Position numbers and translations under genes: made by a program. From a virus (Duplodnaviria; Heunggongvirae; Uroviricota; Caudoviricetes), in IMG/VR virus record IMGVR_UViG_2541047121_000027: a stretch of 12,870 nt of DNA. One strand, given 5' to 3'. Positions 2,960-4,347 of the stretch are shown here, in pieces. Within the stretch, counting starts at the first letter, position 1. Each line of letters begins with the position of its first letter. The notes beneath the pieces are model-generated. The model did no database searches. It was not told the origin of the DNA and saw only the letters and a program-made list of their open reading frames with translations.

Positions 2960-3157
2960 ATGGTTGCCGTAAATCATATACCACACCTTGTACACACACA
3001 AACGGCCTTTGTGTGGCGTTTTCTGGCACTGAGTGCCGGAGAATCTCAAATCATCCACGTAACCGCCTGGACGGAACGCGAAGCGCGTAACCGTTGCCCG
3101 TCCGGTTGTGTTGCTGTATTTGCCGCCCGTATTCGTCAGGAGGTGCGCCATGATTAA
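2960..3157 (+). CDS. Small protein (65 aa), possibly Icd-like host cell division inhibitor
   Basis: AGGAG RBS 5 nt upstream of the ATG. Translation MVAVNHIPHLVHTQTAFVWRFLALSAGESQIIHVTAWTEREARNRCPSGCVAVFAARIRQEVRHD. The Icd-like assignment is from memory of P4-type satellite proteins and is unverified. It is the 3' end of a 314-aa track ORF whose upstream part I consider spurious. Confidence 0.5.
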   Translation: MVAVNHIPHLVHTQTAFVWRFLALSAGESQIIHVTAWTEREARNRCPSGCVAVFAARIRQEVRHD

Positions 3158-3362
3158 TCTGTCACTTACTGACCTTAACCGCATTCAGTTTCGTGAGAAA
3201 TTCACAGGGCAGCTACTGGTCAATGTGGATAAAGGTCGCGTGGTGTGTAATTACCACTTACCAGATGAAGCAATTGTCGCCACAAGGGAATCATTACAGG
3301 AAATCACAAAACGTGCCGGAATGATTAACACGAATATTCAGGGGATGCTTTATGCACAATAA
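3150..3362 (+). CDS. Hypothetical protein (70 aa)
   Basis: AGGAGG RBS 6 nt upstream; ATG overlaps the preceding stop (ATGATTAA). Start taken at the internal Met of the 3108..3362 track ORF. Confidence 0.5.
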   Translation: MINLSLTDLNRIQFREKFTGQLLVNVDKGRVVCNYHLPDEAIVATRESLQEITKRAGMINTNIQGMLYAQ

Positions 3363-3816
3363 AACCACACCGGACGCAGCCGCCGAAGCCATCAAAACGC
3401 TGATGCACGCGCTGATTGATATTTCTGTTATCGCGGACAGGGCACATAAGCACGCCACCAGCGAAACAGAATATGCCGGTGCTTTCGTTCCTCACTCACT
3501 GGCTGTCATGCAATTTAGTGCTGATACGGCGCTGAATGAGGCCAAAGCTATCCTGATTGCTGATTGTGAAAATGGGGGGGTTATGCGTGATGATCGTTTT
3601 AATTCCCTGAAACAGGAATTTTCCGGCGTTCCTGATGATGCGGCTGATGCGCTTTCGTCAATGCCAGAACTTATTAGAGCGGCTTTTTTCTTACTTTCCA
3701 CGAGAGAATATAAATCAACGGGGCTTGATGTACTGAATATCGCCGCCGATTATGCGGAATATGTGGCAGAGGCGCGTTATAGAAGAAAATTTCCTGAGGA
3801 TGTAAGCCATGCGTGA
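3352..3816 (+). CDS. Hypothetical protein (154 aa)
   Basis: Start overlaps the upstream gene by 11 nt (translational coupling). No recognisable domain. Confidence 0.55.
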   Translation: MHNKTTPDAAAEAIKTLMHALIDISVIADRAHKHATSETEYAGAFVPHSLAVMQFSADTALNEAKAILIADCENGGVMRDDRFNSLKQEFSGVPDDAADALSSMPELIRAAFFLLSTREYKSTGLDVLNIAADYAEYVAEARYRRKFPEDVSHA

Positions 3817-4042
3817 TATTTACCACCAAACAATAGACCGCGCATTTCTTGCACTTTCTCACAGTGAAAACATGATGGAAATATTGCGCATATGGCTTGA
3901 AACACTTGGCGACAATGAACGCGACAAACAAAAATCAAGAATTGCCACGGCATTAATAACGCTTCTTGAGCCTGTAATAATGGAACTGCAAGAAATAGAT
4001 CTATTGCACGACAGATATAAAGAACAGCACACCGGAGAATAA
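3809..4042 (+). CDS. Hypothetical protein (77 aa)
   Basis: Overlaps the upstream stop by 8 nt; same-strand operon. Confidence 0.5.
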   Translation: MRDIYHQTIDRAFLALSHSENMMEILRIWLETLGDNERDKQKSRIATALITLLEPVIMELQEIDLLHDRYKEQHTGE

Positions 4043-4047
4043 AAATA

Positions 4048-4347
4048 ATGAAACTTAAATATTCTGGCTTAACTGCCAGTGGCAACACTCACCCTAAATT
4101 TACGCGCGGTGATATTTACCGCGACCAGTACGGCGGCACGGTAATGATTAAGGGCGTGGAAGAACGGCGCGTAACCTACCGCCGTGAAGGTTACGAATAT
4201 GATTGCGTGATGCCTGTTTATCAGTTCCGGCGTGATTTTTCTCTGGTACAGACCGCGCCGCATAACGTGCCCACCAGCAACGCCAGGGCACGGGCAAACA
4301 TCCAGAAGCTGAAAACCATGGTTAACGGATTCAGGGGCAAGAAATGA
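4048..4347 (+). CDS. Hypothetical protein (99 aa)
   Basis: GGAG RBS; its stop overlaps the rep start (ATGA). Confidence 0.55.
   Translation: MKLKYSGLTASGNTHPKFTRGDIYRDQYGGTVMIKGVEERRVTYRREGYEYDCVMPVYQFRRDFSLVQTAPHNVPTSNARARANIQKLKTMVNGFRGKK

Follow-up and report, generated by a model that had tools for sequence, protein, structure and literature searches.

The chromosomal site between roxA (ycfD) and phoQ corresponds to O-island 51/CP-933C/Sp7 in enterohaemorrhagic Escherichia coli (EHEC) and to EcCICFT073 in the uropathogenic E. coli (UPEC) strain CFT073. Fillol-Salom et al. have placed the O-island 51/CP-933C- and CFT073-type islands among the phage-inducible chromosomal islands (PICIs). 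The EcCICFT073-type PICIs are transcribed rightward and are switched on by AlpA, the expression of which is dependent on a helper phage (PMC6092414). The RgdR protein (ECs1581 of the O157:H7 strain Sakai; 99 aa, 11.704 kDa, pI 10.09) is encoded between z1841 and z1842 of O-island 51 (OI-51). It activates LEE1 of the enterocyte effacement locus (LEE), and hence type III secretion, and represses motility (PMC3378721). Here, we analysed a viral DNA stretch of 12,870 nt (IMG/VR record IMGVR_UViG_2541047121_000027; the whole stretch is hereafter called the window), which carries an island of this kind. We concentrated on four small open reading frames (ORFs), ORF1 to ORF4, located between an icd-like gene and the replicase gene, rep.

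Our preferred explanation, which we hold with moderate confidence, is that these ORFs belong to the early operon of a PICI made of coupled small genes. In this operon ORF4 is RgdR, the RgdR and ORF3 proteins form a core, and ORF1 and ORF2 encode optional binder proteins that are not major interference or defence factors.

The four-gene array and its island

The window matches many E. coli O157:H7 and O145 chromosomes with 100% identity, and in them the island is flanked by roxA and phoQ. We observed the gene order int, alpA, a divergent ribbon-helix-helix (RHH) gene, the icd-like gene, the four ORFs, rep, a small gene, ssb, a PerC-like gene, lambda-E-like capsid and decoration genes, and terS. 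EcCICFT073, residing at the same site, has the order int-alpA-RHH-icd-small genes-rgdR-rep-ssb-perC-capsid-decoration. The island has int at its left end (interrupted by an insertion sequence, IS), alpA, a unidirectional rightward gene order, and its own AAA_25 replicase with an iteron-like origin region directly 3′ of it. PICIs are expected to span ~10–15 kb and to have few packaging genes and no tail or lysis genes; the island of locus L001 measures ~11 kb, and its packaging genes are those for the capsid, the decoration protein and terS only. The complete head/packaging module of capsid-forming PICIs (terL, portal, protease, connectors) is absent, as we found only the major capsid protein, the decoration protein, one unknown gene and terS. 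The element is a classical Gram-negative PICI of the EcCICFT073 type, inserted between roxA and phoQ. Helper-phage induction, replication and high-frequency transfer have been demonstrated for EcCICFT073 only (PMC6092414, PMC6739421).

All the genes of the array are on the + strand. Its first cistron is the icd-like gene (65 aa, 2960..3157; NF033153, E = 5e-18). It is followed by ORF1 (70 aa, 3150..3362; phrog_340, 1e-23), ORF2 (154 aa, 3352..3816; phrog_5146 over residues 1–73 and phrog_24341 over residues 78–154), ORF3 (77 aa, acidic, pI 5.1, 3809..4042; phrog_2196, 1e-42) and ORF4 (99 aa, pI 10.2, 4048..4347; PF13973, 1.6e-24). The replicase, a RepA-family/AAA_25 helicase of 466 aa, comes next (4344..5744; AAA_25, 2.5e-43). 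Each of the four ORFs begins with ATG. The icd-like gene overlaps ORF1 by 8 nt (ATGATTAA), ORF1 overlaps ORF2 by 11 nt, ORF2 overlaps ORF3 by 8 nt (ATGCGTGA) and ORF4 overlaps rep by 4 nt (ATGA). ORF3 and ORF4 do not overlap and are separated by a 5-nt spacer. A preliminary description of this DNA, made from the letters alone, had stated that the ORFs overlap one another, which is correct for the ATGA, 11-nt and 8-nt junctions but not for that between ORF3 and ORF4. We also observed a Shine-Dalgarno-like motif 5–8 nt 5′ of every start (AGGAGGTG, AGGGGATG, GAGGATG, GGAGAA and AGGGGCAAG). These motifs double as C-terminal codons of the preceding protein (for example, CAG GAG GTG encodes Q-E-V), and the C-terminal tails of the upstream proteins (Q-E/G-V-x-H-x) correspond to the Shine-Dalgarno motif and the start codon of the next gene. 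No terminator-like sites were found between the genes of the array.

RefSeq annotates all four ORFs as coding sequences (CDS), and each of them matched PHROG families of unknown function (E-values from 1e-23 to 3e-92). Among 5426 complete E. coli genomes, ORF1 occurs in 637, ORF2 in 1104, the ORF3 allele in 812 and rgdR in 1397. The pairwise ratios of non-synonymous to synonymous substitution (dN/dS) against diverged alleles were 0.24–0.48; one close ORF3 pair had a dN/dS of ~1, calculated on only 24 changes. All four ORFs are real genes, and they belong to the rightward early operon of the PICI. The geometry of the junctions argues for translational coupling along the array. The preliminary description had proposed that the ORFs make up a translationally coupled cassette within a satellite's early operon, between icd-like and rep; it is supported in this respect, and the P4 operon described below has the same layout.

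In the left operon of P4 (cI ORF/epsilon/orf151/orf106/alpha), a row of small genes likewise lies between an Icd-like/cI ORF and the replicase. The 8-nt ATGNNTRA overlaps are identical in the two systems, and the middle gene encodes 151 aa in P4 and 154 aa in the window. However, the resemblance is confined to the layout: no sid, delta or psu, which would mark a P4-like satellite, is annotated on the island. BLASTP detected no similarity of P4 epsilon, orf151 or orf106 to the ORFs, and hhalign was negative for ORF2 against orf151 and for the ORF3 family against orf106. Homology to P4 epsilon, orf151, orf106 or the cI ORF was rejected.

ORF4 as an RgdR allele and the mosaic of small genes

ORF4 matched the Pfam family DUF4222 (PF13973) with 85.7 bits against a cut-off of 27. 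The view of the preliminary description that none of the ORFs matches a recognisable family is therefore incorrect for ORF4, as DUF4222 is the family of the characterised RgdR, and the functional literature on this domain concerns RgdR alone (Flockhart et al. 2012, PMC3378721). ORF4 is a basic protein of 99 aa, has RGD at residues 20–22 and retains the conserved core of residues 20–68; it also occupies the same place as rgdR in an island at the same chromosomal site. R20 of the RGD motif of RgdR is needed to activate secretion, and the DNA binding of the RgdR family is weak and non-specific (PMC3378721). C1493 of CFT073 complements an ecs1581 mutant, and activation of LEE1/type III secretion together with repression of motility has been demonstrated for ECs1581, C1493 and O157 lineage variants (PMC3378721).

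Another O157:H7 island at the same site (L003) encodes an allele of 11,703 Da and pI 10.09, which are the values published for ECs1581; the L003-type allele is therefore the prototype. ORF4 is 81% identical to this L003/ECs1581-type protein and 93% identical to C1493. We rejected the possibility that ORF4 is ECs1581 itself, because mass and pI point to the L003 allele and the window has an 81%-identical variant. ORF4 differs from the prototype at the N- and C-termini, in the same pattern as the published O157 lineages, which differ in the RgdR termini and also in the sequences upstream of rgdR (PMC3378721). The latter divergence matches the differing small-gene arrays of the islands that we compared. 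Judged by its sequence, ORF4 is an RgdR allele, and the LEE and motility effects were published for other alleles of this protein. An AlphaFold2 model of the RgdR allele has a predicted five-strand SH3/Tudor-like barrel (residues 23–68) followed by a helix (77–96). The RgdR alleles are always strongly basic, with net charges of +10.7 to +14.5.

We compared 91 rgdR loci, consisting of the window, 8 RefSeq E. coli islands, 80 IMG/VR contigs, and one locus each from Shigella flexneri and E. albertii; the IMG/VR loci are the closest RgdR matches and are partly redundant. The 82 complete arrays displayed 20 architectures, assembled from seven families (icd, fA, fB, 2N, O1 for ORF1, 2C, and O3 for ORF3) plus RgdR, and the icd-like gene was the first in all of them. 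The architecture of the window (icd, O1, fused 2N and 2C, O3, RgdR) was seen in 5 of the 82. An O3 gene lies directly 5′ of rgdR in 89/91 loci, and a 5-nt gap precedes rgdR in 87/91. The ATGA overlap between rgdR and the replicase gene was present in all the 82 loci checked, where the replicases are annotated as RepA helicase, DNA primase family, DUF927 or DUF5906. At the other junctions, the length of the overlap follows the downstream family: 8 nt before O1 (23/23), 11 nt before 2N (70/70) and 4 nt before fB (21/24). The module families have 24–97% identity, with length and charge conserved. Segments of high identity between islands start or stop at 3157 (end of icd), at 3583 (first base of 2C) and at ~4028 (O3/rgdR linker), and a recurrent breakpoint is at 4490, inside rep.

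The array of EcCICFT073 reads icd, fB, 2N, 2C, O3, C1493, primase, and thus has counterparts of ORF3 and ORF4, of ORF2 in the form of two genes, and none of ORF1. The window differs from it in having a RepA-helicase in place of the primase-type replicase, in the presence of ORF1, the absence of fB and the fusion of 2N with 2C, and in its IS-disrupted int.

Module 2N comprises residues 1–77 of ORF2 (3352–3582, +) and module 2C residues 78–154 (3583–3816, +); in relatives, each of them is mostly a stand-alone protein of ~75 aa. The two were fused in 17 loci and were separate genes in 51. A G7 tract (3574..3580, +) is situated just 5′ of the 2N/2C junction and of an internal Met codon. In two of the compared islands (L006 and L008) this tract is G8, which results in two genes overlapping by 8 nt instead of one ORF2. 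ORF2 is thus composed of two modules fused via a one-base difference in a G tract. Its AlphaFold2 model is all-helical and of low confidence, with a predicted local distance difference test (pLDDT) score of 56.8, and its fold matches were generic helical hairpins. ORF3 is 87% identical to its CFT073 homologue, and the O3 alleles were acidic in all 8 sampled (net charge −3.4 to −8.2). We rejected the view that 2N, 2C and ORF3 derive from a single module by duplication and divergence, as the hhalign probability was <1%.

Sequence and profile searches with ORF1–3 against Pfam, NCBIfam, PADLOC and PDB gave nothing significant, and tblastn of ORF1–3 against 50,697 phage records gave no match. The ORF1 family amounts to 29 clusters among 5.8 billion proteins, nearly all from E. 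coli, and ORF2 has 53 relatives among 1.84 billion representative proteins. The preliminary description had named a lack of conservation, or frame-shifts, in related islands as evidence against it. This applies in part: ORF3 and ORF4 are near-constant, but ORF1 and ORF2 are optional, the latter being split or fused by the G7/G8 tract. From these comparisons, we concluded that the islands re-assort a pool of small-protein families, at least seven in number and restricted to satellites, to which ORF1 and ORF2 belong as optional members, and that ORF3 is a near-constant acidic gene adjoining rgdR on its 5′ side.

The N-terminal domain of the replicase (residues 1–122; 4344–4709) is common to all the replicase variants. 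It has 56–86% identity to that of the other types sampled (DNA primase family, DUF927 and DUF5906), after which the sequences diverge. As the breakpoints fall at ~4028 and 4490 and this domain is shared, the conserved block consists of the O3 tail, rgdR and the N-terminal domain of the replicase. The 'four Pri-Rep variants' of the replicase are themselves mosaic, with one N-terminal domain and differing downstream parts.

Two apparent fusions were set aside. In L008, a 700-aa 'DUF4222 domain-containing protein' (4662–6764, NZ_CM143726) looked like Rosetta-stone evidence for a DUF4222-replicase link. It was discarded because A7 replaces A6 at the ATGA junction in this one assembly, probably as a homopolymer sequencing error or a slip mutation. 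A 477-aa 'fusion' in P0271 was rejected as a spurious long ORF.

Flanking regions and phage relatives of RgdR

Upstream of the array, alpA (1967..2155, +) matched Pfam Phage_AlpA (E = 5e-17), and its product has been described as the activator of the PICI cycle (PMC6092414). The divergent RHH gene (2656..2829, − strand) is small and Arc/YlcI-YnfO-like, matching the Arc-like repressor family phrog_228 (1.5e-6) and, below threshold, NF041551. A gene of this type is found at the same position in L004, L005, L007–L009 and CFT073. Between the RHH gene and the icd operon, we observed an operator-like site (2826..2872, unstranded) having two copies of ACATGGTAATTACC, each with a perfect 10-bp palindrome GGTAATTACC (direct repeat D1, inverted repeat I1); a TTGACA hexamer at 2824–2829 lies ahead of the icd operon. 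Together, the RHH gene and the palindromes look like a repressor-operator pair. Whether Gram-negative PICIs have a master repressor has been called unclear (PMC6092414).

Just 3′ of alpA, at ~2290–2340, lies a strong GC hairpin (GCGGC...GCCGC) accompanied by an A-run and a U-run; it resembles a terminator acting in both directions between alpA and the icd operon. When we searched for a C4/CI-like or C4/IsrK-type RNA upstream of icd, Rfam gave only sub-threshold, unrelated matches around the hairpin at ~2300. An open frame of 314 codons (2213–3157) runs from just 3′ of alpA, across the antisense RHH gene, into the icd-like gene. Its 5′ part is annotated by the Prokaryotic Genome Annotation Pipeline (PGAP) as an 'Icd-like pseudogene', and its translation looks non-protein-like.

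Immediately 3′ of rep, at 5743..5935 (unstranded), there are at least six copies, in both orientations, of the iteron-like repeat AAAAGTGAGG. These repeats probably constitute the replication origin, and their position agrees with that of the PICI ori (PMC6092414). Downstream of ssb, the island has a small regulator gene of the PerC-family/ANR-like type (6614–6886), as do other E. coli PICIs. Phage mEp460 also has a PerC-family/ANR-like gene after its replication gene. The PerC-family gene at 6614–6886 may be a second virulence-regulator gene of the island. At 9554–9629 and 10419–10494, inverted repeats of ~75 bp (~91% identical) flank the terS-like gene; they may be the counterparts of the two cos sites reported for EcCICFT073 (PMC6739421). 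At the window's left end (1–439), an IS3-family element, with orfA at 60–386 (− strand) and an ALIL frameshift pseudoknot at 1–105, is inserted ~67 nt into the integrase gene (440–1602), and identity to the intact island begins at 440. The island is probably immobilised in the strain carrying this IS-cut int.

DUF4222 is also encoded by lambdoid phages. A DUF4222 ORF of 59 aa (E = 8e-19) was found in 111 temperate phage records, and in the five phage contexts examined the ORF belongs to the early-right operon, after a cII/YmfL-like gene. In vB_EcoS-733R5 and SfII the ORF overlaps the O replication gene, and in mEp460 and the Stx1 phage it precedes an Ash-Rha regulator. The lambdoid phages (SfII, SfV, mEp460, Stx phages and vB_EcoS-733R5) thus share with the island the Pfam domain and its early-operon location overlapping or near the O gene or the Ash-Rha regulator. 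However, their DUF4222 proteins have ~60–70 aa and are without RgdR's N-terminal extension and C-terminal helix, and these phages have no relatives of ORF1–3.

The phage DUF4222 ORFs are mostly missing from the annotation or hidden under a CDS called in another frame or on the other strand; the hidden ones include L013 3980–4159, L015 ~3001–3177, L016 ~3001–3162 and L017 ~2974–3180. Among the masking CDS are YmfM-like and 'antirepressor' genes with over-extended starts, and phenotypes credited to them might involve the hidden DUF4222 ORF. Apparent fusions of DUF4222 to Ash/Rha 'antirepressors' were rejected, because the starts are mis-annotated and the DUF4222 ORF is in another frame.

Explanations for the array and their meaning

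According to our preferred explanation, the helper phage would switch on AlpA, and ribosomes loaded on the icd-like gene would then be handed from cistron to cistron, so that the small proteins would be made together and the expression of rep would be tied to upstream translation. RgdR and ORF3 would be core functions of the island, not accessory virulence genes. They would be passed on in one block with the N-terminal domain that the replicases share, and their most likely place of action would be early regulation or the initiation of replication. The effects on LEE and motility would then be by-products of a DNA- or RNA-polymerase-directed activity of RgdR. ORF1 and ORF2 would be dispensable acidic helical binder proteins, probably tuning the physiology of the host or the helper, and would have no major part in interference or defence.

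Several points weigh against this explanation. The argument for coupling is one of geometry alone, and the links of ORF3 to RgdR and of RgdR to the replicase are circumstantial, being drawn from adjacency and opposite charge. The conserved block could merely reflect linkage or regulatory sequence, and DUF4222 does not always adjoin a replication gene in lambdoid phages. The predicted SH3/Tudor-like fold is too generic to separate DNA binding from binding to polymerase or another protein, and the ORF2 model is of low confidence, with generic fold matches. No structural match assigns a role to ORF1–3, and those proposed here are putative. The locus counts overstate independence, since the IMG/VR loci were chosen by closeness and are partly redundant. 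Finally, the linkers are not the sole points of exchange, because the further breakpoints at 3043, 3120, 3396 and 3527 fall within modules.

All four proteins might instead serve the replicase, for example in origin remodelling, helicase loading or copy-number control, in the manner of P4 Cnr, the product of orf106. The array lies directly 5′ of rep, the small gene orf106 is in the same place in P4, rgdR is joined to rep by ATGA in 82/82 loci and is co-inherited with the shared replicase N-terminal domain, and DUF4222 overlaps the O gene in several lambdoid phages. We nevertheless regard this alternative as rather unlikely. The presence of ORF1 and ORF2 is independent of the replicase type, and one architecture occurs with both the RepA-helicase and the primase-type enzyme; there is no similarity to P4 orf106 or orf151; and DUF4222 in mEp460 and the Stx1 phage precedes the Ash-Rha regulator and not a replication gene. 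Moreover, RgdR acts in trans on host promoters without the island replicase (PMC3378721).

The preliminary description had looked on the ORFs as candidates for novel helper-exploitation or anti-phage factors, and ORF1–3 could act on helper or competing phages by derepressing, exploiting or blocking them, in the manner of P4 epsilon or the interference proteins of the Staphylococcus aureus pathogenicity islands (SaPIs). A mosaic, variable content (20 architectures) and small acidic proteins are both typical of arms-race genes, the families are satellite-restricted and absent from the 50,697 phage records, and the position is analogous to that of P4 epsilon. We found, however, no similarity to epsilon, no PADLOC match at E ≤ 0.1 for ORF1–4 and their neighbours, and, with dN/dS below 0.5, no sign of diversifying selection. 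In addition, the lambda mutants able to escape the complete EcCICFT073 carry changes in TerS alone, which RppA targets, and single TerS substitutions are sufficient for lambda to plaque on the strain with EcCICFT073 (PMC6739421). As this island carries 2N, 2C, O3 and RgdR, the early array is not the main determinant of interference. The published interference screen was limited to genes downstream of ori, omitting those upstream (PMC6739421), and weaker or phage-specific effects may therefore occur. Overall, a helper-directed or anti-phage role of ORF1–3 appears improbable to us.

It would be more improbable still, indeed very hard to uphold, that the ORFs are only translated spacers with functionless peptides, which would keep ribosomes on the mRNA, protect it from Rho and let the control at icd-like govern rep. 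P1 icd-ant and the P4 left operon offer an analogy for such a relay. The conserved Shine-Dalgarno/ATG/stop linkers, and the freedom of the modules to vary in number and identity, would suit it. On the other hand, the protein sequences are under purifying selection, the module families are maintained at 24–97% identity with conserved length and charge, and no C4/CI-type RNA was detected upstream. RgdR has, besides, a clear phenotype in trans (PMC3378721).

Beyond our preferred explanation, we tentatively put forward a broader proposal, which is doubtful as a whole. The icd-to-rgdR interval of enterobacterial PICIs could be a recombination-driven cassette array, with conserved 20-nt Shine-Dalgarno/ATG/stop linkers owned by the downstream module and with genes swapped, fused or dropped. 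ORF3, RgdR and the replicase N-terminal domain could form an unrecognised core unit for initiation or regulation, of which the virulence role of RgdR would be a side effect, and ORF1 and ORF2 could be new host-takeover or counter-defence proteins.

In other respects this early operon is an ordinary one and comes from a known satellite type, and one of its four genes, rgdR, had already been characterised. The analysis adds three things: a cassette-like mosaic whose linkers belong to the modules, the invariant block of O3, rgdR and the replicase N-terminal domain, and the origin of ORF2 by fusion. The homologues of ORF2 and ORF3 are directly testable, because they are present in the tractable EcCICFT073, in its one unscreened part. 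The EHEC literature treats RgdR as an accessory virulence regulator, whereas here it appears to be encoded by a fixed core gene of the satellite, always joined to the gene of the replicase and to a single acidic partner. This core status of rgdR points to a native function, which could account for its pleiotropy, with effects on type III secretion, motility and Congo-red binding.

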